Positions 1 through 17,638 of a stretch of DNA of 19,830 bases are shown piece after piece. Numbering within the stretch: the first letter of the stretch is position 1; each line of letters begins with the position of its first letter. The stretch is from the IMG/VR virus record IMGVR_UViG_2537561977_000028, one strand, 5' to 3'. This stretch comes from a virus (lineage: Duplodnaviria; Heunggongvirae; Uroviricota; Caudoviricetes). The notes beneath the pieces are model-generated. The model worked only from the letters and a program-made list of their open reading frames with translations. It did not search any database and was not told the DNA's origin. The position numbers were made by a program, and so were the translations under genes.

Positions 1-1214
1 GTGAAACTCAATGCCCGTCAAATAGACACAGCCAAGCCAAAAGAGAAGGCTTACAAGCTGGCCGATGGTGGCGGTTTGTATCTCTTGGTAAAACCTAATG
101 GAGGTAAATACTGGCGACTTAAATATCGTGTAGCTGGTAAAGAGAAGCTATTGGCACTAGGTGTTTATCCTGAGGTTACTCTAGCCGATGCTCGGGCAAA
201 ACGTGAAGATGCGAAAAGAGGTATCGCTGGTGGTATCGATCCGATGGAAGCGAAACGAGAGGAAAAGATTGCCCGGGAAACGCAGTTAAACAACACCTTC
301 AAAGATATTGCCCTTGAGTGGCACAGCAGCAAATTAAAAAATGGTCTGCTGGTTATGCTTCAGACATCCTCGAAGCCTTCAACAAAGATGTGTTCCCTTA
401 CATTGGCAAAAAACCCATCGCCGAAATCAAACCACTTGAACTTCTGAATGTGCTGCGTCGCATCGAGGGGCGCGGTGCTACAGAAAAAGCCAAAAAAGTG
501 AGGCAACGGTGCGGGGAAGTTTTCCGCTATGCAATAGTCACTGGTCGCGCAGAGTATAACCCTGCACCAGACCTTACTAGCGCGATGCAAGGCCATGAAT
601 CTAATCATTACCCTTTCCTTACAGCCAAAGAATTACCTGATTTTTTCAAGGCATTGTCCAGTTACTCAGGAAGCGCATTGGTTGTTATGGCGGCTCGTCT
701 ACTGATTATCACCGGCTTGCGGACTGGCGAACTACGTGGCGCATTATGGGATGAAATTGATTTCAACAAGGCTATCTGGGAGATACCCGCTTCACGTATG
801 AAAATGCGGCGGCCTCATATTGTGCCATTGTCTGAGCAGGCTCTTTCGCTTATTGGGAAGATTAGAGAAATAACAGGCAATTACCCTCTTATGTTTCCCG
901 GGCGCAATGATCCAAGGAAAACAATGAGCGAGGCCAGCATAAACCAAGTGTTTAAGCGCATTGGCTACGCTGGACGTGTAACTGGTCATGGGTTCCGGCA
1001 CACTATGAGTACGATTTTGCATGAGCAGGGCTATAACACCGCGTGGATAGAAACGCAGCTCGCTCACGTTGATAAGAACTCAATTCGTGGCACATACAAC
1101 CATGCGCAATATCTGGATGGAAGGCGGGAGATGCTTCAATGGTATGCCGACTATATGGATTCTCTCGAGCATGACGGAAATGTGGTGCATATGGTGTTTG
1201 AAAAACACGCATGA
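1..1214 (+). pseudogene. int: P4/CP4-57-type tyrosine integrase (IntA-like), reading frame broken by an apparent -1 frameshift
   Basis: Frame-1 ORF 1..447 carries a typical P4-integrase N-terminus (KLADGGGLYLLVKPNGGKYWRLKYR). Frame-3 ORF 318..1214 carries the catalytic half (LRTGELRGALWDEIDF, HGFRHT, LAHVDKNSIRGTYNH). The frames meet at an A6 run (336-341); one extra A would give a continuous protein reading WHSSKLKKWSAGYAS. The GTG at position 1 may be the true start, or the start lies just upstream of the window. Confidence 0.85.
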
Positions 1215-1358
1215 AACAACTGGACAAGTATACAGAGGTTTACTAAAGTATAGGGGAGTAGATTGATAAAAACTCACAGAGGATTGCTATTTAACAGTTA
1301 GCCCTGGAGAAGGGCAATCGCTCTTTTACAAACGAAGGTGTATTGAGCCTTCTACGTC

Positions 1359-1420
1359 GCTGACAAAGCGGAATGTTCTTTAACAGGCTTTGGCGCTGAC
1401 AAAGCGCAATTGTTCTTTAA
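1359..1420. repeat. Imperfect ~26-bp direct repeat pair (GCTGACAAAGCG[G/C]AAT(T)GTTCTTTAA) in the int-alpA intergenic region
   Basis: Two copies read directly at 1359-1383 and 1395-1420, 36 bp apart start to start. Candidate protein-binding sites (AlpA or integrase arm-type); function not established. Confidence 0.5.
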
Positions 1421-1521
1421 AACTACTGGATGTCACGCCTAATAGCGTGATCCTGCCGAAATGCAGGGTAGCTCTACCCTTGTGGAGCAAACAAACCAAA
1501 ACAATCTGACTATCTTTTATA

Positions 1522-1556
1522 AAAGACCGCAATATGTTTTTCATATTGTGGTCTTT
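1522..1556. other. Long hairpin / palindrome (AAAGACCGCAATATG - TTTTT - CATATTGTGGTCTTT)
   Basis: 15-nt arms with one mismatch, read directly. No clean downstream T-tract on the plus strand, so it may be an operator or RNA structure rather than a terminator. Confidence 0.4.
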
Positions 1557-1642
1557 GGCGTATTCGACATTTGACGCAAATAAAACTCTCGCCATTCGTT
1601 GCAGGAGGGGGTTATTGCGTCATTAGTACAGGATATTAATAA

Positions 1643-1846
1643 ATGGCTAATTACAATTCATTAATTCGTCTCTCTGAAGTTCAAAGGCGAACTGGTTATA
1701 GCAAAGCATGGATTTATCGTCTTATTAGTCAGGGGAGGTTCCCTAAACAGGTAAAAATTGGAAGTCGGGCAATTGCTTTTGTTGAGTCTGAAATAGATGA
1801 ATGGATTGAGAAGTGTATATTAGAATCTAGAGACGAGGTGGCCTGA
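1643..1846 (+). CDS. alpA: AlpA-family (prophage CP4-57 regulatory protein) helix-turn-helix transcriptional regulator, 67 aa
   Basis: Translation LIRLSEVQRRTGYSKAWIYRLISQGRFPKQVKIGSRAIAFVESEIDEWI is the canonical AlpA/Xis-like HTH pattern. Position right after the integrase is typical of P4-like elements. Confidence 0.88.
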   Translation: MANYNSLIRLSEVQRRTGYSKAWIYRLISQGRFPKQVKIGSRAIAFVESEIDEWIEKCILESRDEVA

Positions 1847-2277
1847 TGGAAAAGAAAAACCGCCCATTACAGGCGGCTAATTCAGATATTCGTGTATCTG
1901 ATGTTACGCCCCTTACAAAATCCCTTCAAGCACCAAAGCGCACACCGAAAAAGCATCGTGCCAGAGTCTATATGCTGCGTACTGGTATAGAGGGATGGAC
2001 AGAAAATGACATTCTTCGCTACTGCCGTCTGTCTTCTGGTCGTAACTATGCAACAGAGTTAGAACGCCAGCTTGGAATCACTCTGGAGCGTATCGACGAA
2101 AAGAATCCTGATGGTATCGGAACACACCTTCGCTACCGTTTCTCCTGCCGTGGTGATGTTCTGAAAGTGATCACTCATATTAACCATCTTGCGAACATAA
2201 ATGATCACAACGGACTTTCTCAGCAGGAAATTGCCGACATTCTGAAACTCTACCCGGACGCGTTTAACGCCGCCTAA
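1846..2277 (+). CDS. Hypothetical protein, 143 aa
   Basis: ATG overlaps the alpA stop (TGATGG, translational coupling). Basic N-terminus, no recognisable motif. Confidence 0.6.
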   Translation: MEKKNRPLQAANSDIRVSDVTPLTKSLQAPKRTPKKHRARVYMLRTGIEGWTENDILRYCRLSSGRNYATELERQLGITLERIDEKNPDGIGTHLRYRFSCRGDVLKVITHINHLANINDHNGLSQQEIADILKLYPDAFNAA

Positions 2278-2289
2278 CGGAGACTGAAA

Positions 2290-3123
2290 ATGAACATCGA
2301 AAAAAGCAGATTAATTTCTGAGGCCGCCCCTCATCTGAACGCCTCTCTGGGCACAATTAACGGTAATGAATTTGCCGCAATTGTCCCGGTTATTCCTGGT
2401 CATATCGGTGGGCGTGAAACCAATATTGTTAGCGCAAAAGCGTTACACAAAGCGTTGGGCGTGGGAAAAGACTTCTCTACATGGATCACTGATCGCATCT
2501 CTGAATATGACTTCACCATTGGGCACGATTACTCAGTCCATAAAACTATTTCCCCAAATTTGGGGAAAATCCCGAATGGCGCGGCTTACAGCAAGATTAA
2601 GCAGTCTGGCAGACCCGGCAAAGACTATCTGTTAAGTGTCGGAATGGCGAAAGAACTGGCAATGATCGAACGCAATGATCAGGGGCGCGCTATCCGCCGT
2701 TATTTCATCCAGTGCGAGGAAGAATTACAGCGTAGCGTGCCTGAAATCGCCGCCCGCTATCGTCGCCAGCTAAAAGCCCGTCTCAGTGCCGCAAACAACT
2801 TTAAGCCAATGTGCGATGCGCTGAATATGGCCCGTGCCGAGATGGGTAAAACGACGCAGCAACACCACTACACAAACGAGAGCAATATGATTTCTCGTAT
2901 CGTTCTTGGTGGGCTAACTGCTAAACAGTGGGCGCGGATAAATGGCTATTCTGGCGAACCTCGCGACCATATGAACGCAGAACAACTTGAGCACCTCTCA
3001 TATCTCGAAAGCACCAATATCACGTTAATTGATATGGGCATGGAATATGAGCAGCGCAAAGGAGAACTCACCCGCCTGTCGCAACGCTGGCTCGCCAAGC
3101 GTCTGGAGGCGGTCAATGTTTAA
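2290..3123 (+). CDS. Phage antirepressor-like protein (AntA/AntB-type N-terminal domain), 277 aa
   Basis: Segment SAKALHKALGVGKDFSTWITDRISEYDFTIGHDYSVHK ... GRPGKDYLLSVGMAKELAMIE matches my memory of the AntA antirepressor N-terminal domain. Family assignment is by eye only. Confidence 0.6.
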   Translation: MNIEKSRLISEAAPHLNASLGTINGNEFAAIVPVIPGHIGGRETNIVSAKALHKALGVGKDFSTWITDRISEYDFTIGHDYSVHKTISPNLGKIPNGAAYSKIKQSGRPGKDYLLSVGMAKELAMIERNDQGRAIRRYFIQCEEELQRSVPEIAARYRRQLKARLSAANNFKPMCDALNMARAEMGKTTQQHHYTNESNMISRIVLGGLTAKQWARINGYSGEPRDHMNAEQLEHLSYLESTNITLIDMGMEYEQRKGELTRLSQRWLAKRLEAVNV

Positions 3124-3298
3124 GCCGACAGGAACACCACAACCTCAAAAACGCTACAAAGATGCCCACGGAGCACTCGTTACTGTCGAAAGCGTGTCTC
3201 ACAACCGAGTGACGTTTTATCGCGACGGGTATCAATCGCCATGCGTACAACCGCTGGCACGTTTCATGAAGGAGTTCGCGGAGGTTAACAAATGCTAA
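3116..3298 (+). CDS. Small hypothetical protein, 60 aa
   Basis: ATG at 3116 lies 6 nt after a GGAGG (3105-3109) and overlaps the stop of the upstream gene. The ORF-track entry 3029..3298 is probably over-extended at its 5' end. Confidence 0.5.
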   Translation: MFKPTGTPQPQKRYKDAHGALVTVESVSHNRVTFYRDGYQSPCVQPLARFMKEFAEVNKC

Positions 3299-4359
3299 CC
3301 GTCCAGAAGAAGATATTTTCACTTGCTGGCATGTCGCCAAAATCCAGCAATATGACGGCAAAATCAGTTATTAATACAGCAGATACAAGCAAAGTTTATC
3401 ATTTGCTGGTGGTCGGAACGGATGCCTTAACCATACCAGAAATCTCGGGCGATGATATTAGCATTGAGAAGGTCAGCGGCTGCGCCAGAAAATTTCTGGT
3501 CGTAGATGATGTCTTCCGCTCGTGTAGTGACTCCACAAAAACATTCGTCCACGCGCGTGACGTTAACGAAATGAGCGCGATGTACTGTGCTTCTGGTTCT
3601 TCCAATAGTGAGTTTTCGGAGTCCATAAAAAAGAGCTTGCCGTTATGCGGCAACACGGTTTATGGTTATAAGGCACCTCATAAAACGGGTGCCGGGATTG
3701 GCGTCCTGAAAATTCTGAAGGCGACATATGACGCGCCGAGCGTCTTTTTTTATGTCGTAGGTCTGACTCACCCATTTTTTGGGCGTTGGTGTATAATCCA
3801 GCGCCTTTGTCAATCAATGGTGGCTCAGGCGGGGGCTTCTTCGGAAGCGCCGGTATCCTTCAGAGCCGGTTACGCCAACCCTGTCTGGGCTACCACCAGC
3901 GAAATTGGCGTTTCCGGTGGTAGCGTAACCTGCTATCTGAAGGAGGCTGCCACATGCTGGCTACTACCCCTACCCAAAAACCGCAATTTATCTGGATTAT
4001 CGCCGCAGTTCGCCGCGATTGCCCGACAATTACCGCCAAAATTCATCATATTGCTGCCGAGTCTGAACGCGATGCTCGCCGTTCTCTGGTGCGCGATCAC
4101 GTCTGCTTTTTTGCTGGTCGTATCCGCATGGAGGTGGCACATGATTAAAACCTACGATGTGCATATGGATCCCCTCGAACGCACAAGCCAGATCATCACA
4201 CTGACAGAAGTGATTAACGACATTCTGGTGAGCAACTCTCCCTCACGAGACGAAAGACTGAAGGCGTTACTCGCGATATTGGATCTCGCCGTTCGTGACG
4301 TTCATTTCCTGCTGGAAGGTGGCGAAATGCCAGGAAAAACGGGGGCAACCAATGAATAA
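3292..4359 (+). CDS. Open reading frame of uncertain extent (355 codons without stop); probably coding only in its 5' part
   Basis: ATG overlaps the upstream stop (ATGCTAA). Frame 1 is purine-rich at codon position 1 up to about 3950, then uses rare codons (CTA CTA CCC CTA, AGG, ATA) where frame 3 (3954..4148) looks coding. See findings. Confidence 0.3.
3954..4148 (+). CDS. Small hypothetical protein, 64 aa
   Basis: AGGAGG at 3941-3946, 7 nt before the ATG. Codons are mostly high-frequency NNC/NNG types. Stop overlaps the next ATG (ATGATTAA). Confidence 0.5.
   Translation: MLATTPTQKPQFIWIIAAVRRDCPTITAKIHHIAAESERDARRSLVRDHVCFFAGRIRMEVAHD
4141..4359 (+). CDS. Small hypothetical protein, 72 aa (internal start within the long frame-1 ORF)
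   Basis: GGAGGTGG precedes the ATG at 4141. Translation [30 protein letters not shown]... is protein-like. Stop overlaps the next start (ATGAATAA). Confidence 0.45.
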   Translation: MIKTYDVHMDPLERTSQIITLTEVINDILVSNSPSRDERLKALLAILDLAVRDVHFLLEGGEMPGKTGATNE

Positions 4360-4546
4360 CTCAATTAATGCCCCTCGACTTACGTCCGCACTTCAATTAA
4401 TCGAGCAAGCAGCGACTGTCCTGGTTGCTGTCAGTCTTTCGGCTGAAGAAATGGACGCTGCTGATGTCGTGGATGCGATTAAAGCGTGCTCATCTTTGGT
4501 TAACGATGCCCGTGCAGAGCTGGTAATTCTTGGGGGTGAAAAATGA
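4352..4546 (+). CDS. Small hypothetical protein, 64 aa
   Basis: ATG at 4352 preceded by GGGGG and overlapping the upstream stop. The ORF-track entry 4295..4546 is likely over-extended. Confidence 0.5.
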   Translation: MNNSINAPRLTSALQLIEQAATVLVAVSLSAEEMDAADVVDAIKACSSLVNDARAELVILGGEK

Positions 4547-4806
4547 ATATCAACTTAATTTATCGTCATCCGCGTGAGCTGGAAATTGAATCATTGCTGG
4601 GGCGTGAAGAGCCATATCCAGACACATTCACTCCCGCAGATTGCGCGACTGAACGGCTTACCAGAGCGCGCACAGGTCTGGTTCATGTGATGAATGAGAT
4701 TATTCCCTCGGTGGGAGGGGAACAGGCGACAGTAATCAATAGCTGGCTACAAAAAGTTACCTCCCTGATAGATATCAGTTTAATCGATGTGGAGAGTGCG
4801 AAATGA
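4543..4806 (+). CDS. Small hypothetical protein, 87 aa
   Basis: Start overlaps the upstream stop (ATGA) and its own stop overlaps the next ATG at 4803; part of a translationally coupled chain. Confidence 0.55.
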   Translation: MNINLIYRHPRELEIESLLGREEPYPDTFTPADCATERLTRARTGLVHVMNEIIPSVGGEQATVINSWLQKVTSLIDISLIDVESAK

Positions 4807-4920
4807 CCAACATCCAGCTCATTGAAGCGCAATGTCGCATCGAACAGGTTCAGACTGTTTTAGGGTTCTGGCTTGAAGGGGCCATCCCCATGAAGTGGTC
4901 AACAAAAACTGGCCACCGAG

Positions 4921-6068
<1,148 letters not shown>

Positions 6069-6269
6069 TATGGCACCTGTGTTGTTCTGAGGTGAGCATA
6101 TCACCTCTGTTCAGGTGGCCAAATTCAGTAAACCACTTCACCAGCAACAGAGACAAGTTAATGATTGGCGCGGTTATGTCACTGCTCAATGGCGTACCAG
6201 AAGCTATTCAGGAAGCAGACGAATTGTTGGGCAAATATGAGTTACAGAATCATTCAGGCGAGGCGAAAC

Positions 6270-6872
6270 ATGAATAATTTCTTAACCTTCCATGCAGAAG
6301 CAACGCCTGACGGCGTAAACATCATGTACCGCAGCAACGATGGCATGACAGAACGCGTTGAGGCCGTTTCATATATTGATGCCGTAAATCGTCTGGATGC
6401 CGGGGATTATGACGATAAACCAGATGAAGGTATGTCAATACATCTTGCTATTGCCGATGGCGGCAACCAGGGATATTTCGATTACACATCACAGCATAAC
6501 GTCATTATGTGGAGATGGCTGATCGCAACAGTATTCATGCTGGAAATGAGAGAGGAAAACGGCACTGTCAGCATCATTGATGATACTGGCAATCCTTCCG
6601 AAGTGGCTGTTTATTCCAACGGCATCGTCGCCATGCCGCTGTATCCAGTAGCAGAGCGCCTCGCTATGGCAAACAACATTGAGGGCGCGATGATAGAACG
6701 TTTTGGCATCGAGTCTGGCACAGAACGCGCCATCATTTTCTACAGAGCCATGATGGATGTGGAACAAGGAGCACTGACTCCATTTGGTCGTGAAACGCTT
6801 GCTGAACTTCACAACAGCTTTATAGCTGAACTGAATGAAAACGGCATGCCAGCGGAACCAGTGACGCACTGA
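6270..6872 (+). CDS. Hypothetical protein, 200 aa
   Basis: ATG at 6270 overlaps the stop of the disrupted small gene (ATGAATAA). The ORF-track entry starts at 6165 but the coupling pattern favours 6270. No recognisable motif. Confidence 0.55.
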   Translation: MNNFLTFHAEATPDGVNIMYRSNDGMTERVEAVSYIDAVNRLDAGDYDDKPDEGMSIHLAIADGGNQGYFDYTSQHNVIMWRWLIATVFMLEMREENGTVSIIDDTGNPSEVAVYSNGIVAMPLYPVAERLAMANNIEGAMIERFGIESGTERAIIFYRAMMDVEQGALTPFGRETLAELHNSFIAELNENGMPAEPVTH

Positions 6873-6882
6873 GGATGGAGCC

Positions 6883-7224
6883 ATGATTACTAAAAATTTC
6901 CGACTGAATGCGCTGGCAAATAAGTATGCGTCGGCACTGTATAACCACATTACCTCCACCAGCGGCGGGGACTATTTCATGGTTCATGCGGACGACAAGG
7001 CCGTACGTGTGGAAATCGTCAATGGAGTAAAAGGCGTTCGCAGCCTGATCGATAGCTACACACTGGCTGCCATGAAAGTGTTCTACCCGCAGTGGGAAAC
7101 CGTGGGGATCGAGCTTCTTGATCGTTGCGTCGCTAAGGACGGATTGACTGACGTCGGGCGTGAGATATGGCAAAGCATGGTTAATGACATGGGCGCAACT
7201 GTAGCGGGAGGTTCTCATGCGTGA
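6883..7224 (+). CDS. Hypothetical protein, 113 aa
   Basis: Plus-strand ORF in the operon upstream of the primase; stop overlaps the next start. Confidence 0.55.
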   Translation: MITKNFRLNALANKYASALYNHITSTSGGDYFMVHADDKAVRVEIVNGVKGVRSLIDSYTLAAMKVFYPQWETVGIELLDRCVAKDGLTDVGREIWQSMVNDMGATVAGGSHA

Positions 7225-7588
7225 AAATGCAGAAATGGCGCTTAGCTCCGCAATCGGAGAGCAGGTGGCAAAGATTGCTGGTGCTGTGTGGATTCATAAC
7301 CTTCATTCTACTGGTGAAGAGAAAATGGCAATTCAGACGCCAGAGGGACGCACCATTACTACATCTCTGAAGCCGTCAGATGTTTGTGATCTGATTTGCG
7401 CATTCATGTACCCAGCAATGAGGACTGTCCACGGCGATAAGTGGAAACTTGCGACAACCGCTGAATTTGATATGTGGCTAAACAATGATGGCATGCTGAC
7501 TGATTACGGAATAACCAAGTGGCAGATGCTGGTTAGCCATATCGCAAACGCTATAGACCACGTGGGGTACGGTGATGCGAAACATTGA
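7217..7588 (+). CDS. Hypothetical protein, 123 aa
   Basis: Plus-strand ORF overlapping the primase start by 17 nt. Confidence 0.55.
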   Translation: MRENAEMALSSAIGEQVAKIAGAVWIHNLHSTGEEKMAIQTPEGRTITTSLKPSDVCDLICAFMYPAMRTVHGDKWKLATTAEFDMWLNNDGMLTDYGITKWQMLVSHIANAIDHVGYGDAKH

Positions 7589-10331
7589 TCTTATCCGTCA
7601 GGTTATCAGTGCGTCTGAAAACAACTGGCCTCATGTGCTGGGCTGCCTGAACATAAATGTCCCTGACTCTCCGCGCCGTCATGCTCCCTGCCCTGCATGT
7701 GGGGGCAAAGATCGATTCCGGTTCGATGACAACGGGCGCGGTAGCTTCATCTGTAATCAGTGCGGCGCTGGTGATGGGCTGGATTTAATTAAACGCGTAA
7801 ATAACTGCGACACAACAGAGGCGGCGCTTCTTGCCGCTGATGTTCTGGGTATTGATTACCGGACAACGGAAACACCAGAAGCCACCAGCCAGAAACGGGA
7901 ACAACTGGAAACCGAGCGCCAGCGACGCGAACAGGAGCGCCTGAAAAGGGCAGAGAAGGACGAACAACAAAGACGGGATACGTTTTCCCGTCAGTTTGAT
8001 GACATGCGCAGAAAGGCTGTAAACGGCAAATCTGATTATCTGGTTGCGAAAGGGGTAGGTGATTTTACATTCCCCGTGTTGCCCGATGGATCTCTGTTGC
8101 TGGCGCTGGTGGATAAATCCGGCGCAGTCACAGCAGCACAGACTATTACCTCACATGGTGAAAAAAGACTCCTGACAGGTTCAGCAAAGCGGGGGGCATA
8201 TCACGCCATAAACGCACCAGAAACAACACAGAGCATCTTAATCGCAGAAGGGCTGGCAACGGCATTATCTGCCCATTTAATTCGTCCAGAGGCGCTGACA
8301 GTGGCGGCGATTGATGCCGGGAACCTGTTATATGTCGCCCAGGTACTGCGGGATAAATATCCATCAGCACAAATCATCATTGCTGCGGATAACGACCACA
8401 GCGAAGGAAGACAAAACACGGGGAGAATAGCAGCAGAAAAAGCAGCTTTATCTGTTTCTGGATGGGTGGCATTACCCCCCACAGATCACAAAGCAGACTG
8501 GAATGATTACCACCAAAAACACGGCATTAAATGCGCCACAGAAGCGTTCAATAAGTCAATGTACCAACCACAGGGTAATGGCGTGAAACAGGAGCCACAG
8601 ACCATTGAGGGAAGCGATTTTAAGGTTATGGATACCGACCCACTGAAACCAAGAATAGAAAGCCGCGAGGATGGTATTTATTGGGTATCTCCGAGAGCTG
8701 ACAGCCAGAGTGGAGAAATCATCAATAACGAAAGCTGGTTATGTTCTCCGTTAAGCGTTATCGGTACTGGCAGAGACGATAAAGACCAGTATCTCATTCT
8801 TCGCTGGCTGTCGTTTGGTTCTGAAACGCCGACAACCGCTGCCATTCCACTGGCTGATATTGGTGAACGTGAAGGATGGCGCACACTTAAAGCTGGTGGG
8901 GTAAATGTCACGACCAAAAGCAGCCTCAGAGCAATACTGGCAGACTGGCTACAACGCAGTGGCTCTCGTGAATTGTGGCGTGTTGCTCATGCCACTGGCT
9001 GGCAATGCGGAGCGTACATCATGCCTGATGGGGAAATCATCGGAACACCTGAAAATCCTGTGCTGTTCAGCGGGAGAAGCTCAGCCGCAGCCGGATATAC
9101 CGTCTCAGGGAGCGCGAAAAGCTGGCGTGATAACGTGGCGCGTCTGGCCTTTGGTAACTATTCAATGATGACCGGGATCGGCGCAGCACTGGCAGCGCCA
9201 TTGATTGGGCTGGTGGGCGCTGACGGGTTCGGCATTCATTTCTATGAGCAGTCGAGCGCAGGTAAGACCACCACGGCAAACGTGGCGAGCAGCTTATACG
9301 GCAACCCTGATTTACTGCGGCTGACGTGGTACGGAACCGCGCTGGGGCTGGCAAATGAAGCCGCCGCCCACAATGACGGACTAATGCCGCTTGATGAAGT
9401 TGGTCAGGGCGCTGATCCTGTCAGTGTTTCACAGTCTGCCTATGCGTTATTTAACGGTGTAGGGAAACTGCAAGGCGCTAAAGATGGTGGAAACCGGGAT
9501 CTAAAACGCTGGCGTACAGTGGCAATCAGCACTGGAGAAATGGATTTAGAAACATTTATCGCTACTTCCGGGCGAAAAACCAAAGCCGGGCAACTGGTGC
9601 GACTGCTGAATATTCCGTTGAGTAAAGCAGTACGCTTTCACGATTACCAGAACGGAAAACAGCACGCAGACGCACTGAAAGACGCTTACCAGCATCACCA
9701 CGGCGCAGCCGGGCGTGAGTGGATTAAATGGCTGGCAGACCACCAGCAACAGGCAATTAAAACTGTTCGTGACTGCGAAAGCAGATGGAGAAGTCTGATC
9801 CCATCCGATTATGGTGAGCAGGTTCACCGTGTAGCCGCGCGATTTGCCATTCTGGAGGCCGCATTGCTGTTAGGCGAGGTTGTAACAGGCTGGGATGCTC
9901 AGACATGCCGTGATGCGATACAGCACAGCTATAACGCATGGTTGCGCGAGTTCGGCACAGGTAACAAAGAACATCAGCAGATTATTGAACAAACGGAGGC
10001 ATTTCTTAATGCCTATGGGCTTAGCCGTTTTGCACCATTTCCATACAGCCCGGCAGATTTGCCCATCAAAGATTTGGCCGGATACCGTCAGCGTGGAGAA
10101 CATGACGAAAGCCCAATGATTTTCTACACATTCCCGGCCACATTTGAAAAGGAGATCGCATGTGGTTTCAACGCAAAACAGTTTGCTGAAGTGTTGAAAA
10201 AAGCCGGGATGCTAACCCCACCAAACAGCGGTCGTGGATACCAAAGAAAATCACCACGTATTCAGGGACGACAAATAAACGTTTATGTACTCAATTACCA
10301 GCCAGGAGATTATAACTCATCTGAAGAATGA
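7572..10331 (+). CDS. P4-alpha-like replicative primase-helicase (zinc ribbon + TOPRIM primase + C-terminal P-loop NTPase of DUF927/D5 type), 919 aa
   Basis: Cys4 zinc ribbon CPACGGKDRFRFDD...FICNQCG; TOPRIM motifs ILIAEGLATAL and IIIAADND; P-loop-like FYEQSSAGKTTT. Likely start is the ATG at 7575 (the track starts at GTG 7572). Confidence 0.85.
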   Translation: MMRNIDLIRQVISASENNWPHVLGCLNINVPDSPRRHAPCPACGGKDRFRFDDNGRGSFICNQCGAGDGLDLIKRVNNCDTTEAALLAADVLGIDYRTTETPEATSQKREQLETERQRREQERLKRAEKDEQQRRDTFSRQFDDMRRKAVNGKSDYLVAKGVGDFTFPVLPDGSLLLALVDKSGAVTAAQTITSHGEKRLLTGSAKRGAYHAINAPETTQSILIAEGLATALSAHLIRPEALTVAAIDAGNLLYVAQVLRDKYPSAQIIIAADNDHSEGRQNTGRIAAEKAALSVSGWVALPPTDHKADWNDYHQKHGIKCATEAFNKSMYQPQGNGVKQEPQTIEGSDFKVMDTDPLKPRIESREDGIYWVSPRADSQSGEIINNESWLCSPLSVIGTGRDDKDQYLILRWLSFGSETPTTAAIPLADIGEREGWRTLKAGGVNVTTKSSLRAILADWLQRSGSRELWRVAHATGWQCGAYIMPDGEIIGTPENPVLFSGRSSAAAGYTVSGSAKSWRDNVARLAFGNYSMMTGIGAALAAPLIGLVGADGFGIHFYEQSSAGKTTTANVASSLYGNPDLLRLTWYGTALGLANEAAAHNDGLMPLDEVGQGADPVSVSQSAYALFNGVGKLQGAKDGGNRDLKRWRTVAISTGEMDLETFIATSGRKTKAGQLVRLLNIPLSKAVRFHDYQNGKQHADALKDAYQHHHGAAGREWIKWLADHQQQAIKTVRDCESRWRSLIPSDYGEQVHRVAARFAILEAALLLGEVVTGWDAQTCRDAIQHSYNAWLREFGTGNKEHQQIIEQTEAFLNAYGLSRFAPFPYSPADLPIKDLAGYRQRGEHDESPMIFYTFPATFEKEIACGFNAKQFAEVLKKAGMLTPPNSGRGYQRKSPRIQGRQINVYVLNYQPGDYNSSEE

Positions 10332-10356
10332 GCTTCTTCATGTGCGTAGAAAAGGT

Positions 10357-10467
10357 GTTGGTTCAGTTGGTTCAGTTGGTTCAATTTGTAAAGAGTATTG
10401 TTTTATAAGGATTTTATTCTTTTTATTGAACCAACACTGAACCAACAACACGGTATTTTGAACCAAC
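10357..10467. promoter_or_regulatory. Iteron cluster A (candidate replication origin): 3 tandem GTTGGTTCA, 43-bp AT-rich spacer, 3 inverted TGAACCAAC
   Basis: GTTGGTTCA at 10357-10365, 10366-10374, 10375-10383. AT-rich spacer 10384-10426. TGAACCAAC at 10427-10435, 10438-10446, 10459-10467. Lies directly after the primase gene. Confidence 0.65.
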
Positions 10468-10788
10468 ACAATGTGACTGAATTGATGCGCACAACACCTG
10501 GCTGGCATCAGAGAGTGTTTTACGAGACTTTCGTAAAATCCTGTGTACAAGGGCGTGACGTTTTTGAAAGTGAGCACTACGAAATTTTCGTAGTTCAAAA
10601 AACAGCCTCTGAGAAGTTGTTATGCCTGTTCAGCAAACCATCCGCATAGCTGATCGCGAATCAAATTACCAATGGAGCCAGAAGCAAGGGCAGAACTGAA
10701 AAGTGCCTGCCGTGAAGAGTAATGCGACACCATAAATATAGTTTTTAGAGTCCATAAAAAACCTGTCAAAACCTGACACACAGAACGA

Positions 10789-10820
10789 TGCCACCAGCTA
10801 CTGAGCGGTGGCATTTTTTT
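10789..10820 (+). terminator. Rho-independent terminator candidate
   Basis: Stem TGCCACC / GGTGGCA (7 bp) with an 11-nt loop, followed by A + T7 (10814-10820). Confidence 0.6.
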
Positions 10821-10915
10821 GTGCTATTTGTTTCATATTTTGCAATTACGATGATGAATATTGCGATTTGTGAAACTATAATAACTGTTGTTTTATACAG
10901 TTCTAAGGGGGCGTT

Positions 10916-11077
10916 ATGGCTATTTCAGTAAAGCCGGTATTGATAAGTGAGAAGCAAATGGAAGCGATAAAGAAAATTCAGGAAGAGCAGCGTAAAAAAT
11001 CAGGAATTGGAGTAGCGCCAACTCTGCATGAAATTGCTCGAGGGTTAATAGATAAGGCGCTGGCAGGCTGTATGTGA
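10916..11077 (+). CDS. Small hypothetical protein, 53 aa (below the ORF-track cutoff); possible regulator
   Basis: ATG at 10916 preceded by AGGGGG. Translation MAISVKPVLISEKQMEAIKKIQEEQRKKSGIGVAPTLHEIARGLIDKALAGCM. Sits between the terminator and the cargo operon. Confidence 0.35.
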   Translation: MAISVKPVLISEKQMEAIKKIQEEQRKKSGIGVAPTLHEIARGLIDKALAGCM

Positions 11078-11093
11078 AAATGGATGGCATCGC

Positions 11094-11495
11094 ATGGAAC
11101 TAAAATTTATTGATAACCCTGTGCGATTACAGGCCTTTCTTAACGATCCTGGCAATACCGAAAATATTGTTGAGCCGGGGCACACGTACTACATCAAGCC
11201 TGATGCGGTATATCTCGGCATCTACGAAGGATTGGTGCTGGCTGGCGTTCATGAAGTGCGTAACTTCTGGCATAGCATTGTTGAATGCCATGCGGTGTAC
11301 GACCCCGGATTCCGTGGTGAATATGCACTGCAAGGGCATCGATTATTCTGCAAATGGCTTCTCGAAAACTCACCATTCCTTAACAGCATCACTATGGTTC
11401 CTGACACCACGAAATACGGACGGGCAATTATCCGTTTGCCCGTGTTGGTCACCTTGATGATGCTTATATCAGATGTGGTAAACCCGTCGGCGTAA
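11094..11495 (+). CDS. Hypothetical protein, 133 aa; first gene of the cargo operon
   Basis: Protein-like translation. The overlapping frame ORF 11110..11457 is Trp/Cys-rich and looks non-coding. Confidence 0.6.
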   Translation: MELKFIDNPVRLQAFLNDPGNTENIVEPGHTYYIKPDAVYLGIYEGLVLAGVHEVRNFWHSIVECHAVYDPGFRGEYALQGHRLFCKWLLENSPFLNSITMVPDTTKYGRAIIRLPVLVTLMMLISDVVNPSA

Positions 11496-11538
11496 CGCTT
11501 TATCAGTTAACTCGGCAACAATATAAGGAATTCAGCGA

Positions 11539-12216
11539 ATGTTAATTACCCATATAGCTCATAAACATCTCAATCGTGCCGTATACGAAAAAGGCGGTGA
11601 TGGTGGTGCCTCTAAAGCTCAGGCGAAGGCCCAGCAGCAGGCAATTGATTTGCAGCGCGAGCAGTGGAATACGGTGATGAATAATCTCAAGCCGTATGCA
11701 GAAGTCGGATTGCCTGCTTTACAACAACTACAAGGACTGATGACTCTGGAAGGGCAGAATAAAGCCGCGAATGATTTCTTTGGTTCTGGTTTATATAAAA
11801 CACAGGCAGATCAGGCCCGTTATCAGAACCTTGTCTCAGCAGAAGCTACCGGGGGGCTTGGCTCAACAGCTACCAGTAACCAGTTATCTTCCATTGCGCC
11901 CATGCTTTATAACAATTGGCTTAGTGGGCAAATGCAAAATTATGGAAACCTGCTAAATGTCGGGATGAATGCGGCATCAGGGCAGGCAACGGCAGGGCAA
12001 AACTACGCCAATAATACCGGACAACTCTTGCAGGGGCTTGGCGCTATTCGTGCAGGTCAGGCGCAGCAGCCATCCAGTCTTGCGCGTGGTATTGGTGGGG
12101 CAGCATCAGGCGCTTTAGCGGGTGCGCAACTTGGTTCCGTTGTTCCTGGAATAGGTACTGCGGCAGGCGCTATTGGTGGTGGGCTTATTGGTCTTGTTGG
12201 GGGGCTTGGATTCTAA
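11539..12216 (+). CDS. Gln/Ala-rich protein with Gly-rich hydrophobic C-terminus, 225 aa; virion-internal/ejection-protein-like
   Basis: AAGGA RBS about 8 nt upstream. C-terminus GIGGAASGALAGAQLGSVVPGIGTAAGAIGGGLIGLVGGLGF. Stop overlaps the next start (TAATG). Confidence 0.7.
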   Translation: MLITHIAHKHLNRAVYEKGGDGGASKAQAKAQQQAIDLQREQWNTVMNNLKPYAEVGLPALQQLQGLMTLEGQNKAANDFFGSGLYKTQADQARYQNLVSAEATGGLGSTATSNQLSSIAPMLYNNWLSGQMQNYGNLLNVGMNAASGQATAGQNYANNTGQLLQGLGAIRAGQAQQPSSLARGIGGAASGALAGAQLGSVVPGIGTAAGAIGGGLIGLVGGLGF

Positions 12217-13535
12217 TGGCGACATGGCAACTTGGCGGGCTGCCTAGCATGGCACCGCAAAATGATAATGCTCCTCGTTCTTCCGTTCCTCAGCCTGTGC
12301 AGTATCAGCAGCAGCCAAACGTAGGTTTAATGGCGCTACAGGGGCTAAGAGGCGTTGCTGAGATTAATCAGCAGGCGCAAATTTCCCAGCAGCTAAAAGA
12401 ATATCAGGCACGGTTGGGTAGTGCGGTAGCTAATAATGATCGTGTTGGCGTGCAGAAGTTAATGGCCCAGTATCCCCAGTTTATGGCTGATTCTCAAAAA
12501 CAGATGGGATTCATTGATGCTGAGCAAAATCGGCAGACCGCTGACGCTGCCATGAATCTGCGTCTTGCGTCACAAACTGGAGATCCACTGACCATGCAGA
12601 AGGCCATTCAGCAGGCAAATCCAGTATTACAGCGATTTGGTCTTCCTGCTGAAGAGGTTTATCAGTCTTGGCAGAATGCCCCACAGGAATTCAACAGAAT
12701 CACTGACCTCATCCACCTCCATGCTGATCCAAATAGTTACTTTAGTGTTCAAGAGAAGCAGCAAGGGCAGAGTATTGCACAGCAGAACGCAGATACATCT
12801 GCATATAATGCTCAGGTTAATGCGGAACAGGGTAATCGGCGTCTCGATATGGAGCAGTTCAAAGTCCTATCCGATAACCAGCTACGCACGAGAGAAATGG
12901 TTCTGAAAGCACGACTTGGACGTGCTCAAAATGACATCGAGAGAGACAAGCTCAATGCTGAACTGAGCAAGGTACAGCAGGCGAAAGTGGAGAAGATGAA
13001 CGATAAAATTAATACTGTTGCAGGTAACATCGACTCCTTGAACTCTGCGCTTGAAGTGGGTCATGAACTGGCGGGAATTGTAGGGAAACATCCTTCGGCC
13101 GTTACCCGTTCGCAGAACTATAACCCCCTGACGCTGGGGTTTGGATTCCTTCCTGATGTAGCAGAAGACACACGAAGCCTACGCGCCAAAGCTGATGAAT
13201 ACAACCTAAAGGTTATTCTGCCTAGCCTCAAAGGGACTTTTGGCTCTAACCCAACCGAAGGGGAAAGGGCTGCCCTTATGCAATCTCAAAATGGCATTAA
13301 GTCAGCAACCAGCAATGAGGCATTTTTGCGAGAGTTGAATAAAGCGCAGGACGTAATTATTCGAATGCAGAAACGACAGATTGCCGGGCTCGGTATTCCT
13401 GTAACCAAATCTAAGGACGAAGAAACTGATACCAAAATGCTGTTGCAGGATCCTTCTCTGGTTAAGGATTATGTGACCGCACATGGCTATCTGCCGGAAA
13501 GTTACTATCAGGCAAAACTTAAGGGATGGCAATGA
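12216..13535 (+). CDS. Gln-rich coiled-coil protein, 439 aa; virion-internal/ejection-protein-like
   Basis: Long Q/A/N-rich heptad-like stretches (QQAQISQQLKEYQARLGSAVANN..., LDMEQFKVLSDNQLRTREMVLKARLGRAQNDIERDKLNAELSKVQQAKVEKMNDKIN). Overlaps neighbours at both ends. Confidence 0.7.
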   Translation: MATWQLGGLPSMAPQNDNAPRSSVPQPVQYQQQPNVGLMALQGLRGVAEINQQAQISQQLKEYQARLGSAVANNDRVGVQKLMAQYPQFMADSQKQMGFIDAEQNRQTADAAMNLRLASQTGDPLTMQKAIQQANPVLQRFGLPAEEVYQSWQNAPQEFNRITDLIHLHADPNSYFSVQEKQQGQSIAQQNADTSAYNAQVNAEQGNRRLDMEQFKVLSDNQLRTREMVLKARLGRAQNDIERDKLNAELSKVQQAKVEKMNDKINTVAGNIDSLNSALEVGHELAGIVGKHPSAVTRSQNYNPLTLGFGFLPDVAEDTRSLRAKADEYNLKVILPSLKGTFGSNPTEGERAALMQSQNGIKSATSNEAFLRELNKAQDVIIRMQKRQIAGLGIPVTKSKDEETDTKMLLQDPSLVKDYVTAHGYLPESYYQAKLKGWQ

Positions 13536-16252
13536 TGGCACAACTGACAGAAAAACAGAAAGCCTATTCCCGTCATCTCGATGAAAAATATGGTTTCCCA
13601 TCAGGGACGATGGAAACATTAGTTGGCAATGAATCTAGTGGTAACGGAAGTGCCGAGTCACCGAAAGGAGCTAGAGGATTTGCTCAACTGATGCCCTCAG
13701 TAATGAGTGATGCTGGTTATCGTGGAACAGATCCGCGCTCACTGCCATTTGAAAAGCAAATGGATATCGCAGCAAACCATCTCAATAAAGGAATGAAGCG
13801 ATTTGGTGATATAGGTATGGCATTGGCTGGGTATAATTCTGGCTATGCTCGTATTAATGCCGTAAGAAACGGTAAATCTACACTGCCAGATGAAACGGCT
13901 AATTACGTAAGTAAATTTGCAGATGCCGGAATAATCCCTGATGACAGTGAAATCTTGCAGTTTGCACAAACCAGTCAACATCGCAATCTTCAGCAGCCTG
14001 ACTACTCAGAGCTTGATAAAGAAATCTCTCAGGTGGGAGATATTTCTGCATGGGAAGCAAAACGTCAGCAATTTAAGAACATAGAAGCAGGACTACCAAC
14101 AGCCAGTTCATGGGAGCAGAAAAGAGCTCATTTTCTCGCCGATGAAAATGCCGGGGAACCGCAGCAGCAAGTAGCCAAGTCTAACCTTAATCCTGAGATG
14201 GAATATCTTTCGCCAGGACTGAAAGCTGCGCCAGAGCAGATGGCCAGAGGGATTGCTAATATACCGTTTGATGTAATGGACGCAGGCGTGGGGGTAGTCA
14301 ATGCGGCGCAATCAGCCGGAGCATGGGCAGCTCAGAAGCTTGGTGTGGGTGATGGTACATACACGCCCATATCACCTGTCTTTCGCCCAGTAGACCAACC
14401 TACAGATCCATACGCGCAGGCTGGTGAGCAGCTAGCACCTTACCTTATTACAGGATTAGGTGCAGGAAAGGCAGCTACCGCAGCTTCTTCAGTTGCCAAC
14501 GCTCCACGTGCTGAACGTGCGGCCACAAAGGTGGCTAGTATGTTGGCAGAAAACCTGCCAGGTACATTGGTGAACGCCCAAAAGAACGGGCAGATCAGCC
14601 CAGAAGACCTAGCAAAAGAGACAGGTATTGGCCTAGCAGGATCGCTAGGAGCACGCGCTTTAATAAAGAGCGGACAGACAGCCAGTGACGTAATGCGAGA
14701 TGTATTGCGGAGTAATACAAATCAATCAAGCTATGTGTTAGGGGCAGCAAATACTCTGGAAACCGCCAATGATGTATCGAAAGCAGCGCGTTCTGCCGTA
14801 GGCCGAGAGCATATCGCATCGCAGGCATCAAACGTCAGAGATGATGTCGCTAAGGCGGCGAAAATCACTGGTATTAATATCAACACCCTGACGCCTGGAA
14901 TGCGCTCAGGTAGTCGTGGAATTGCCCAAGCAGAAGGTGTTCTGGCATCAACTCCTGGGAATGTTCAGGATGCTCACCTTACGGCCTTCAATGAAATATC
15001 CTCAAAGTTGAATAAGCAGTTGTCTGATTTCGGTGCTGATTCTGGAAGCGCATCAGAAAAAAGCGCAGCAATTAAAGAGCGCATCATCGCGAGCCTCAGT
15101 GATATGAAAACAGCAGAGAATATGGCATGGGCAGAACTGCGAAGCACGATGCCACGCGAAAGGATGAAAATGAGTAATGGGATGGCTGTCGTCCAAGCAG
15201 AAAAAGCAGCCAATGTTCCACTCAGCCCGGAGATGAAACAGTTTCAGGCTGCCAACAACCAAGGTGGCGGCATAACCTTCGACGGGATGAAGGCATGGCG
15301 TGCTAAGTTTGCTGATGCTGAACAAGCAAACACCCGGGCAGGTAAGGCCAATGCCGCCCGGGTTGCCGGAGAAATGCGCAGAGCTATCACTGATGACATG
15401 CGCATCATGGCTGAAAAAGGAAACTTCCTCACAGAATGGCAGAAAGCTAACGATCTCTCTAAAAGTTACATTATCGCCAAACAAAATGCCGAATCTGTTT
15501 TTGGTCGAGATCTCGCATCAGACGCTATGGTAAGAAAAGGTGCCGATACGCTTAAGGCATCCGCAAACACTGGAACGGGAGCTTTTCACCGTCTTATCTC
15601 CGCGCAGCCGGAAGCAGAACGCCAACCAGCAATAGCATCTATTCTTCAGCATGCTGTGGCGCAGGGAGAGAAGGGAGGAATCGGTGAAGAGTCTGGTATC
15701 CAGTATTTTGCCAAGCTCATGACCCAGCAGAATGTAAACGCCATCAGTCGTCATGCGCCAGATCTCGGTAGAATGATGAAAGAGTTCGGTGTACTCGCTA
15801 AAGCCAGCACCAGACCGCAGCGATACGTAGAGCGCACGGGAAGAACAACTGAGGCTCTCAAAACGCTCGATTCAGGCCTTCCAAAGATCGTCGGCGTGAT
15901 TATGAACGGAGTTCAACAGTCAGGTGCGATCGCTGGAGGCTTTGGCGGTGGTGTAATTGGTTCGATTAGTGGTTTGGTTGCTGGTGGCGCGCTGAGAAAT
16001 ACTGTGGCTAAGATTGGGGCGACAAGAAGTGGTCGATATGCGATAGAGAAAGCCGTTCAGGAAGCTACAAAAGCAGTGCGCGCAGGGGCATCACCAGCAG
16101 CGATCGCCGCAGCAGAGAAACGATTTTCGGCCAATAAAATTGCCATGAAAGCAATTCGTGATGCCGTTGGGGCTGAAGAATTCGTGAAACTGACAAGGGC
16201 CGGGATTGTAGCTACCCTCAGTGGCATGAAAGATGTTAGCGAATGGGAATAG
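13526..16252 (+). CDS. Large protein with N-terminal lytic transglycosylase (SLT) domain, Ala/Gln-rich central region and Gly-rich hydrophobic C-terminal segment, 908 aa
   Basis: SLT family-1 motifs: catalytic E-S in LVGNESSGNGSAESPKGARGFAQLMP and the AYNxG-type motif ALAGYNSGYARINAV. C-terminal GAIAGGFGGGVIGSISGLVAGGAL. Real start may be the ATG at 13532 or 13535, which are better spaced from the AAGGGA. Confidence 0.75.
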   Translation: MAMMAQLTEKQKAYSRHLDEKYGFPSGTMETLVGNESSGNGSAESPKGARGFAQLMPSVMSDAGYRGTDPRSLPFEKQMDIAANHLNKGMKRFGDIGMALAGYNSGYARINAVRNGKSTLPDETANYVSKFADAGIIPDDSEILQFAQTSQHRNLQQPDYSELDKEISQVGDISAWEAKRQQFKNIEAGLPTASSWEQKRAHFLADENAGEPQQQVAKSNLNPEMEYLSPGLKAAPEQMARGIANIPFDVMDAGVGVVNAAQSAGAWAAQKLGVGDGTYTPISPVFRPVDQPTDPYAQAGEQLAPYLITGLGAGKAATAASSVANAPRAERAATKVASMLAENLPGTLVNAQKNGQISPEDLAKETGIGLAGSLGARALIKSGQTASDVMRDVLRSNTNQSSYVLGAANTLETANDVSKAARSAVGREHIASQASNVRDDVAKAAKITGININTLTPGMRSGSRGIAQAEGVLASTPGNVQDAHLTAFNEISSKLNKQLSDFGADSGSASEKSAAIKERIIASLSDMKTAENMAWAELRSTMPRERMKMSNGMAVVQAEKAANVPLSPEMKQFQAANNQGGGITFDGMKAWRAKFADAEQANTRAGKANAARVAGEMRRAITDDMRIMAEKGNFLTEWQKANDLSKSYIIAKQNAESVFGRDLASDAMVRKGADTLKASANTGTGAFHRLISAQPEAERQPAIASILQHAVAQGEKGGIGEESGIQYFAKLMTQQNVNAISRHAPDLGRMMKEFGVLAKASTRPQRYVERTGRTTEALKTLDSGLPKIVGVIMNGVQQSGAIAGGFGGGVIGSISGLVAGGALRNTVAKIGATRSGRYAIEKAVQEATKAVRAGASPAAIAAAEKRFSANKIAMKAIRDAVGAEEFVKLTRAGIVATLSGMKDVSEWE

Positions 16253-16402
16253 ACGCTCTAACTAACAAAACCATAATAGCCAAGGACGGCATACTGATAT
16301 TGAGCCAACTATCAAAATTCCATATCACATTACGAGCCTGTGGCTTACATTCGCTTACAGTGATGATAATTTATAACCACGCAATTCTTAGGTGAGATTA
16401 TC

Positions 16403-17101: not shown

Positions 17102-17108
17102 CTAATAA

Positions 17109-17129
17109 GCCCGGTACGCCGGGCATTTT
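17109..17129 (+). terminator. Rho-independent terminator candidate after the lipoprotein gene
   Basis: GCCCGG-TACG-CCGGGC hairpin followed by ATTTT, 8 nt after the stop codon. Confidence 0.55.
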
Positions 17130-17244
17130 GCCCCCTATTATTCATGAATCGCTTTTTCTAGAAGGTATGCGACAAACGTTAAGTGACATTGCCTACACAT
17201 TCGGGGCGGGATTTCAAATCCGCTCCCAGTTGATGGGGCCGTTA

Positions 17245-17614: not shown

Positions 17615-17638
17615 ATCGACAGCATACACATTGGATAT

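Follow-up and report, generated by a model that had tools for sequence, protein, structure and literature searches.

The DNA analyzed here is a stretch of 19,830 nucleotides from a Caudoviricetes virus record (IMG/VR IMGVR_UViG_2537561977_000028; hereafter, the window). By its gene order and near-identity to a described island, it can be assigned to the EcCIMP1 family of phage satellite islands of Escherichia coli: over positions 1-4890 and 6141-17619, its identity to the E. coli MP1 island is 96.4% and 98.8%, respectively. The segment under study contains a single long open reading frame (ORF) on the plus strand that runs across a predicted promoter, two small RNAs and an icd-like gene, all of which have counterparts in phage P4, and ends in frame with another small gene that we denote orf72 (Table 1).

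The long ORF starts where the preceding gene, which encodes a DUF4222 protein (Pfam, 87 bits), ends. Its ATG overlaps the DUF4222 stop codon and follows a GGAGG Shine-Dalgarno (SD) sequence at a distance of 7 nt, that is, the junction has the features of eta-type translational coupling. A sequence-only reading of the window had pointed out that frame 1 stays open for 1068 nt from an ATG overlapping the upstream stop, that a perfect AGGAGG precedes by 7 nt the ATG of a 64-codon ORF in frame 3, that the tail of frame 1 has a GGAGG of its own (6 nt ahead of the ATG at 4141), and that runs of seven and six T residues occur at 3745-3751 and 3775-3780; all of these features were recovered at the same positions. 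The changes in coding character described in that reading were reproduced as well, using codon log-odds trained on the long genes of the window itself. Within the first 650 nt or so, for which a coding-like codon structure had been claimed, frame 1 scores weakly best over 3292-3439 (+0.13) and close to zero over 3440-3672; frame 3 is preferred over frame 1 from position 3954 (+0.27 versus -0.14 in 3954-4140); and frame 1 is again the best over 4141-4356 (+0.23). Upstream of icd, frame 1 includes no stop codons in 221 codons, compared with 13 and 15 stops in the other two frames. The openness of frame 1 exceeds chance, with a probability of approximately 8e-7 when the stop density is taken from the other frames.

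Table 1. Elements of the long ORF region and their coordinates in the window
Feature	Position	Strand	Details
Long eta-like ORF	3292-4359	+	355 codons, stop 4357-4359; 'ash family protein' in RefSeq
Translational coupling junction	3280-3298	+	GGAGG 3280-3284, ATG 3292-3294, DUF4222 stop 3296-3298
Fragment of P22-type small terminase gene (terS nt 268-374)	3440-3546	-	107 nt; pac equivalent 3525-3546
Predicted sigma-70 promoter, P4 PLE-like	3637-3666	+	-35 TTGCCG 3637-3642, 18-nt spacer, -10 TATGGT 3661-3666
IsrK/P4 seqA-type RNA	3673-3751	+	Rfam RF01394 match 3673-3750, 67.8 bits (gathering score 50)
C4-target mimics in IsrK	3698-3704; 3715-3721	+	a1 TTGGCGT; b1 CTGAAGG; covary with C4 loops
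Intrinsic terminator of IsrK	3730-3751	+	hairpin 3730-3744 and T7 run 3745-3751; terminator scan
C4/P4 CI-type antisense RNA	3813-3900	+	Rfam RF01695, 79.9 bits (gathering score 45), full-length
Exposed C4 sites	3857-3863; 3872-3878	+	b CCTTCAG; a ACGCCAA
icd leader with C4 targets	3905-3946	+	a' TTGGCGT 3905-3911; b' CTGAAGG 3937-3943, overlapping SD AGGAGG 3941-3946
icd-like/P4 kil-like gene	3954-4148	+	64 aa; -1/+2 frame relative to long ORF; NCBIfam NF033153, 71.7 bits (cutoff 25)
orf72	4141-4359	+	72 codons; 3'-terminal part of the long ORF, same frame; SD GGAGG 4130-4134

The two RNAs nested in the long ORF are readily identified. The upstream one belongs to the IsrK/c4-a1b1 type (RF01394/RF03163), as indicated jointly by its score, the terminator and the presence of the a1 and b1 copies, and the downstream one is a C4 RNA, with the score, the structure and two exposed complementary sites expected of this family. 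Among 20 relatives, 18 of the 28 base pairs of C4 have undergone compensatory double changes that maintain the pairing, in support of this fold. The exposed b and a sites of C4 are complementary to the b' and a' sites in the icd leader and also to the b1 and a1 copies in IsrK, and the C4 loop, IsrK and the leader covary in all three directions across 18 loci. In particular, the C4 b loop shows 8-13 nt of contiguous complementarity to its own leader, compared with a mean of 6.3 for non-self combinations, and high values for non-self combinations are observed only between loci with the same loop sequence, so that at least 10 specificity types are represented among the 18 loci. The loop type of the window is that of a Raoultella locus (L017). 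Comparison of positions 3697-3939 of the window with the corresponding regions of three related islands (L005, L006 and L009) and the MP1 island (L031) reveals a cassette swap: the C4 and leader sequences are only 59-65% identical, with the flanks being 95-100% identical, and the islands with swapped cassettes still keep the long ORF open. Thus, judging from these alignments, the C4/leader region looks like an exchangeable immunity cassette. The MP1 island itself contains an equivalent open frame of 356 codons and differs from the window in its immunity cassette, with 127 differences concentrated in 3697-3939.

Upstream of the RNAs, a sigma-70 promoter similar to PLE of P4 is predicted from two conserved hexamers that are held at a constant distance by a spacer of variable sequence: the pattern aaaaaGGGCTTGCC, followed by 18 variable nt, TATGGT and 6 nt to the first base of IsrK, is retained in 21 loci including P4. 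Transcription from this promoter would start near G3673; an A-tract (3627-3634) lies upstream of it. The only promoter match from a simple scan, at 3464-3493, is not conserved in the relatives and was not used. We also noted a perfect 6-bp inverted repeat (TTGCCG-ttatg-CGGCAA, 3637-3653) that extends from the -35 box into the spacer and is called by the scan as a minus-strand terminator-like structure; this repeat is confined to the family of the window, the spacers being different in other loci.

The genes in the 3' part of the segment evolve as protein-coding genes. The product of the icd-like gene is homologous to P4 Kil, and substitutions counted by codon position in its own frame (2215/1918/5367) show the third-position excess expected of a coding sequence; together with the profile score, this pattern indicates that the icd-like ORF is a real gene. 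The start of orf72 overlaps the icd stop and its own stop overlaps the ATG of the next gene (4352). Although no family was detected for orf72 at threshold in Pfam, NCBIfam or PHROGs, homologues with 39-45% amino acid identity are present in three other loci (L018, L019 and L023), with the SD and ATG conserved and codon-position differences of 293/179/391, so that orf72, too, appears to be a genuine small gene. In this respect, the sequence-only reading was right to consider a genuine overlapping-gene arrangement: icd and orf72 are both real, and the long ORF overlaps both of them. The long ORF itself matches the Phage_ASH domain of Pfam (PF10554; 117.5 bits against a threshold of 26) over amino acids 124-232, which correspond to nt 3661-3987, that is, precisely the -10 box, IsrK, the spacer, C4 and the leader, up to the eleventh codon of icd. 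The score is clearly significant, but substitutions in C4 and IsrK are distributed evenly over codon positions, contrary to what protein-level constraint would produce, so that what Pfam defines as Phage_ASH is in essence the conceptual translation of a promoter, two RNAs and a leader.

To place these observations in an evolutionary context, we compared the window with 19 loci from other Enterobacteriaceae, collected via the Icd homologue, and with the E. coli relatives, P4, a P1-like plasmid and the P4-like element of E. coli O157. Both IsrK and C4 are found upstream of icd in the Rfam-scanned loci, namely, 20/20 relatives as well as P4, the P1-like plasmid and the O157 element; one locus, L026, has C4 only. 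Each of the 25 loci examined in addition to the window has one frame that runs without a stop for 186-655 codons through IsrK, C4 and icd, and the other two frames are broken in every locus where all three were tabulated. Given a stop density of 0.052 per codon in the other frames, the probability that no stops occur upstream of icd by chance ranges from 2e-2 to 8e-12 per locus. The phase of the long ORF relative to IsrK and C4 is identical in 21/21 loci, and the distances between the two RNAs (140, 128, 125, 101 and 98 nt) are all equal modulo 3, that is, the indels in the spacer preserve the phase. The start codon is located between -13 and +5 nt from the stop codon of the upstream ORF in 23/23 loci, including P4, usually as an ATGA-type overlap with an SD. 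The longest frame in this collection, 655 codons at positions 1266-3233 of L026 (the second locus of Escherichia sp. MOD1-EC7003), covers C4 and icd, with no IsrK and no Phage_ASH match.

The conservation of the open frame is not accompanied by conservation of the encoded protein. Pairwise substitutions counted by codon position in the frame of the long ORF are flat both in C4 (1926/1884/1934) and in IsrK (1283/1316/1231), which suggests that, over this part, the RNA elements rather than the protein sequence are constrained. A frame that is open and in phase while the amino acid sequence over the RNAs is unconstrained is what would be expected were translation itself the function. Full-length homologues of the ORF in its present form (329-376 aa) are abundant in E. 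coli and Klebsiella, with identity down to 49% at 98% coverage. The sequence-only reading had proposed that homologues of the complete 355-aa protein in other genomes would vindicate the long ORF; such homologues exist, and the ORF indeed recurs, but its conservation does not reside in the protein sequence encoded over the RNAs. The same reading entertained the possibility that the 5' part is a non-coding immunity or leader region that happens to stay open. The first half of this proposal is borne out by the promoter, IsrK/seqA, C4/CI and the icd leader at 3637-3953; the second half is at odds with a frame that is uninterrupted in every one of the 25 loci, whose phase survives the indels and whose start codon is coupled to the preceding gene.

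The loci fall into two classes defined by the distance between C4 and the icd ATG. In 13 of the fetched loci as well as P4, the P1-like plasmid and the O157 element, this distance is 54 or 51 nt, which places the long ORF and icd in one frame with a common stop. In the family of the window, Klebsiella michiganensis, Pluralibacter, Leclercia, Symbiopectobacterium and a second Escherichia locus, the distance is 53 or 50 nt, and the long ORF, shifted to +1 relative to icd, passes through this gene without stopping and, in most cases, continues into the next one; in the window, the ORF ends 211 nt beyond the icd stop, so that the same-frame, shared-stop arrangement of eta and kil is absent. The junction of the window type, GCCACATG, differs from the in-frame junctions GCCACCATG or GCCGCTATG by 1 nt between the SD and the ATG of icd. 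In L018, the change is upstream of the SD instead and, given the two types of junctions, the shift must have occurred at least twice. Between the SD and the stop codon of icd, the +1 frame is free of stops in 12/12 shifted loci (at least 7 lineages and at least two independent junction types), whereas in 13/13 in-frame loci it contains at least one stop, located within the body of icd in 11 of them and at the junction in two. The shift is also apparent from comparison with phrog_6928, a profile of the in-frame form, because the long ORF of the window matches profile positions 31-149 and Icd matches positions 138-194 in a different frame. Thus, the suggestion of the sequence-only reading that an upstream gene lost its stop or acquired an indel holds in the evolutionary sense, as a 1-nt difference between the SD and the ATG relative to the P4-type arrangement, but the outcome is a widespread, maintained variant rather than decay, and the T7 run proposed as a site of the indel is the tail of the intrinsic terminator that ends IsrK. 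That a change of register with the toxin gene is tolerated provided that the frame stays open is direct evidence of selection for openness rather than for the protein product. This shifted-frame variant of the eta/kil arrangement is previously undescribed.

The closest known counterpart of the segment is the left operon of P4, which shares with the window an operon of the AlpA/Vis type, a coupled long ORF, the internal promoter, IsrK/seqA with its terminator, C4/CI, the SD target and a gene for a Kil/Icd-like protein of 64-65 aa. On the minus strand of P4, we located the IsrK-like RNA at 8692-8615, C4 (the CI RNA) at 8507-8420 and a 214-codon ORF (8812-8168) that contains Kil in frame; the phase of this ORF relative to both RNAs is the same as in the window, it belongs to the same Pfam family, and the ORF once described as the P4 'cI protein' is also a Phage_ASH member. 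The differences are that kil is nested in frame within eta and shares its stop, whereas in the window icd is completely overlapped in the +1 frame by an ORF that ends at orf72; that the specificity sequences are CCUGUGA/UUCUCAC in P4 and CCUUCAG/ACGCCAA in the window; and that the ORF of the window has approximately 115 extra N-terminal codons, including the terS/pac fragment. In the immI region of phages P1 and P7, the C4 sites pair with a' and b' over the icd ribosome-binding site, copies of these targets (a1 and b1) are located upstream, and icd is coupled to the next gene. In the P1-like plasmid, the frame is likewise open all the way between the stop of the upstream gene and that of icd, but it is in phase with icd, and an antirepressor gene comes after icd, where the window has small ORFs and a replication module. 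A third relevant system is isrK-orf45-anrP of the prophage Gifsy-1, in which the IsrK terminator is leaky and the small ORF in the read-through transcript is silent until relieved by RNA-RNA pairing, according to the abstract of PMC4825925, which mentions no long overlapping ORF. Its IsrK belongs to the same Rfam family as that of the window, but its output, as described there, is an antirepressor/AntQ cascade in a prophage rather than a satellite replication operon.

Taken together, these observations make it likely that the segment is a P4/P1-type RNA immunity and control region in which the long ORF is an eta-like translated conduit kept open by selection. The regulatory logic of such a region can be outlined by analogy with P4, P1 and Gifsy-1. 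In the quiescent island, transcripts would start at approximately 3673 from the constitutive promoter within the long ORF; most of them would end at the IsrK/seqA terminator, and read-through would yield the C4/CI RNA. C4 would then pair with a' and b', covering the ribosome-binding site of the toxic icd/kil-like gene, and with the RNA left untranslated, transcription of the downstream replication genes would terminate, which amounts to immunity; the same stretches of C4 could also pair with the a1 and b1 mimics in IsrK. Upon induction of the helper, transcripts of the upstream, AlpA-controlled operon would arrive loaded with ribosomes, which would couple from the DUF4222 stop into the ATG at 3292 and translate onward across the promoter, the hairpin of the terminator, C4 and the C4 targets. 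Their passage would override both the RNA structures and Rho-dependent termination, and the overlap of the start codon at 4352 with the stop codon at 4357 would carry expression into the downstream genes. In this lineage, the long ORF would read through icd and merge in frame with orf72, without the Eta-Kil fusion end of P4. Given this proposed role as a ribosome conduit, the long ORF is expected to be selected for translatability and not for a particular protein over the RNA part. In P4, as summarized in PMC10111431, eta has an internal promoter and is coupled to an alpA homologue, and its translation from an upstream late promoter prevents immunity-dependent termination.

Several points weigh against this interpretation or at least against parts of it. 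The anti-termination role of translation is transferred to the window from P4 via the secondary summary just cited. In Gifsy-1, the short IsrK is described as activating rather than repressing translation (abstract of PMC4825925), which makes the sign of the IsrK effect in the window uncertain. The promoter matches only 8 of the 12 consensus positions, which places it below the threshold of a simple consensus scan, and was identified by its conservation pattern alone. The compared loci are related, so the counts given above overstate the number of independent cases. Finally, in the first 49 codons or so, 9 of the 12 differences between the window and MP1 are at third codon positions (binomial P of approximately 0.004), so that some protein-level constraint on the N-terminal peptide is possible, and this peptide or the underlying DNA may have a role. 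An N-terminal motif, QKxFxLAGL, recurs in other loci; it is conserved at the DNA level as well and resembles a block of sequence next to the promoter.

Some of the same observations could be taken to mean that the long ORF is an artefact of annotation, its frame being open by chance over a structured, GC-rich RNA, with only icd, orf72 and the RNAs being real. The exact coincidence of the Pfam domain with nucleic-acid elements and the flat substitution profile fit this explanation, as do the N-terminal parts of 28-365 aa that are mostly unrelated between lineages, the antisense terS fragment in the 5' third and the frequent labeling of the ORF as a pseudogene by the Prokaryotic Genome Annotation Pipeline (PGAP) itself. 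However, we consider an artefact unlikely because in all 25 loci the frame stays open far past the RNAs, on the upstream side as well as through icd (P per locus from 2e-2 to 8e-12), all spacer indels are multiples of three, an SD-bearing start is coupled to the upstream stop in 23/23 loci, and stops are missing from the +1 frame of icd only in loci whose long ORF runs in that frame; the translated eta of P4, as summarized in PMC10111431, provides a precedent. The opposite explanation, under which the ORF encodes a functional 'Ash/Eta' protein, a regulator of the Bro network whose amino acid sequence matters and whose overlap with the RNAs is incidental, is in our judgment slightly less probable still. 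It has to contend with a conserved part that shows no codon-position bias, with encoded residues that are freely altered by compensatory changes in the RNAs, with 62 codons that are an alternative frame of icd and are replaced by Icd itself in 13 relatives, and with the lack of PHROG or Pfam matches for amino acids 1-127. What speaks for it is a curated Pfam family matched with 117.5 bits, the full-length homologues in E. coli and Klebsiella, the fusions with an AntA domain in some relatives, the view of Phage_ASH as a Bro-network domain (PMC10111431) and the third-position excess in the first 49 codons or so. The recurring QKxFxLAGL motif also belongs on this list; on the other side, the motif is conserved as DNA, too, and similar to the promoter-proximal block.

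The remaining explanation, recent decay, posits that an ancestral eta/kil-type gene was frameshifted and that the 355-codon frame is a transient pseudogene fusion. The 1-nt difference at the SD-ATG junction relative to the in-frame relatives, the split of the phrog_6928 profile over two frames and the 'incomplete' label attached to the ORF by PGAP in some records are what such an event would leave behind. A transient state is nevertheless hard to reconcile with the presence of the shifted form, with at least two types of junctions, in Escherichia, Klebsiella, Leclercia, Pluralibacter and Symbiopectobacterium, with the thousands of full-length members in databases, and with an alternative frame of icd that is stop-free in every shifted locus although Icd has diverged to 68%. 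Furthermore, EcCIMP1, a functional and mobilizable island (PMC11773190), has the same arrangement. Decay thus appears very improbable. The module is real and is explained by known biology, namely, the eta/kil/CI immunity module of P4 in a satellite of the EcCIMP1 type.

The gene order in the window, which is shared with EcCIMP1, is as follows: integrase, AlpA-like helix-turn-helix protein, hypothetical protein, AntA/B antirepressor, DUF4222, the long ORF, small ORFs, TOPRIM/DUF927 primase and homologues of P22-type ejection proteins. EcCIMP1 of E. coli MP1 has been described as a 19,963-bp phage-inducible chromosomal island (PICI) located at a tRNA-Thr gene between proA and yagU and mobilized, at a very low frequency, by the P22-like phage Kapi1 (PMC11773190); the closest relatives of the window share this tRNA-Thr/proA site. 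In that study, the long ORF appears merely as a conserved 'Ash family protein', and the mechanism of packaging is left open. The window differs from the MP1 copy by an insertion at approximately 4890-6141 of an element of the IS3 family of insertion sequences, with a minus-strand ORF (4921-5739) containing rve and HTH_21 domains. Homologues of P22 ejection and virion proteins are encoded at 11094-16252 and include a DUF2824 protein, P22 gp7, an injectosome translocase of the gp20 type and a protein of 908 aa with an SLT domain; over nucleotides 11094-11673, the window shares 79.5% identity with Kapi1 DNA. In one of the related islands (L005), the 87-aa product of the ORF at 2713-2976, a homologue of window positions 4543-4806, is annotated in RefSeq as 'nicotinic acetylcholine receptor subunit beta' (WP_110844061.1), which is an evident misannotation.

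The part of the long ORF that precedes the promoter merits separate consideration. For amino acids 1-127, no family was detected at threshold in Pfam, NCBIfam or PHROGs. Directly upstream of the -35 box (3608-3636) lies a conserved DNA block, GAGTTTCTGGAGTCCATAAAAAAG, with equivalents in L004 and L010-L018, that is translated into an EFxESIKK motif, and 'TSTR..REGEF' units are repeated in the N-terminal parts of several long ORFs; such sequences may serve as an UP element or a site of protein binding, or they may be a pac-like repeat in degenerate form. A minus-strand gene under the 5' third (3399-3656) was considered and rejected, given that it showed no family match and no coding signal except for the terS fragment. 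This fragment, also on the minus strand, is 91.6% identical to terS of phages Bas106/Dewey, 90.7% to that of IME10 and 86.3% to that of P22. The match begins (terS nt 268) where the 22-bp pac site, as annotated in P22-pbi, has its left edge; within pac, 15-16 of the 22 positions match, and near-identity extends over the following 85 nt. The MP1 island carries a different variant of the fragment with the same boundaries, the closest relatives of which are APC_JM3.2 (87.8%) and P22/As3 (86.9%). Kapi1 was rejected as the source because its TerS is of a different, 142-aa type and blastn yielded no match between Kapi1 and the fragment.

Motifs similar to pac (GAAGnTTTnTnTGnnnTCACTACGCGAG) were also detected 100-160 nt upstream of IsrK in four other loci (L004 at 2470, L013 at 2071 and 2131, L014 at 2114 and L015 at 1843), in the orientation opposite to that of the copy in the window; altogether, there are 17 pac-like matches versus 1.9 expected from shuffled sequences. 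Counting both orientations, short motifs of this kind recur at such distances in at least five island lineages other than that of the window. A further pac-like 22-mer (18/22 positions) is located on the plus strand, between genes, close to the island's right end (17277-17298); the 200 nt around it show no phage homology, so that this site rests on the motif alone. The islands of the EcCIMP1 family lack a terminase gene, and the window carries genes for ejection proteins similar to P22 gp7, gp20 and gp16. On the strength of these similarities, we tentatively propose positions 3525-3546 as a candidate for a captured P22-type pac signal by which P22-like helpers might package satellites of the EcCIMP1 family, although we would rate this proposal as possible rather than probable. 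If it is correct, the cognate helper would carry a TerS of the P22/IME10/Bas106 type and would not be Kapi1, which would explain the very low frequency of transfer by Kapi1, and the pac-like fragment would provide a testable answer to the question of how satellites of this type are packaged.

The annotation of this module in RefSeq is inconsistent: the long ORF is listed as a 355-aa 'ash family protein' in some records and as an Ash pseudogene accompanied by Icd in others, and relatives include 'Icd-like proteins' of 185-303 aa. Both RNAs and orf72 are often missing from the annotation; orf72 in particular is absent from records in which Ash is called a pseudogene, such as those of MS1494 and MP1. 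Recognition of the module as a whole would correct thousands of records. More generally, the comparative data extend to P1-like plasmids and PICIs the principle of P4 eta, namely, a sequence-agnostic ORF whose translation would override RNA-based immunity. The C4/target cassettes probably represent immunity types that can be predicted from sequence.

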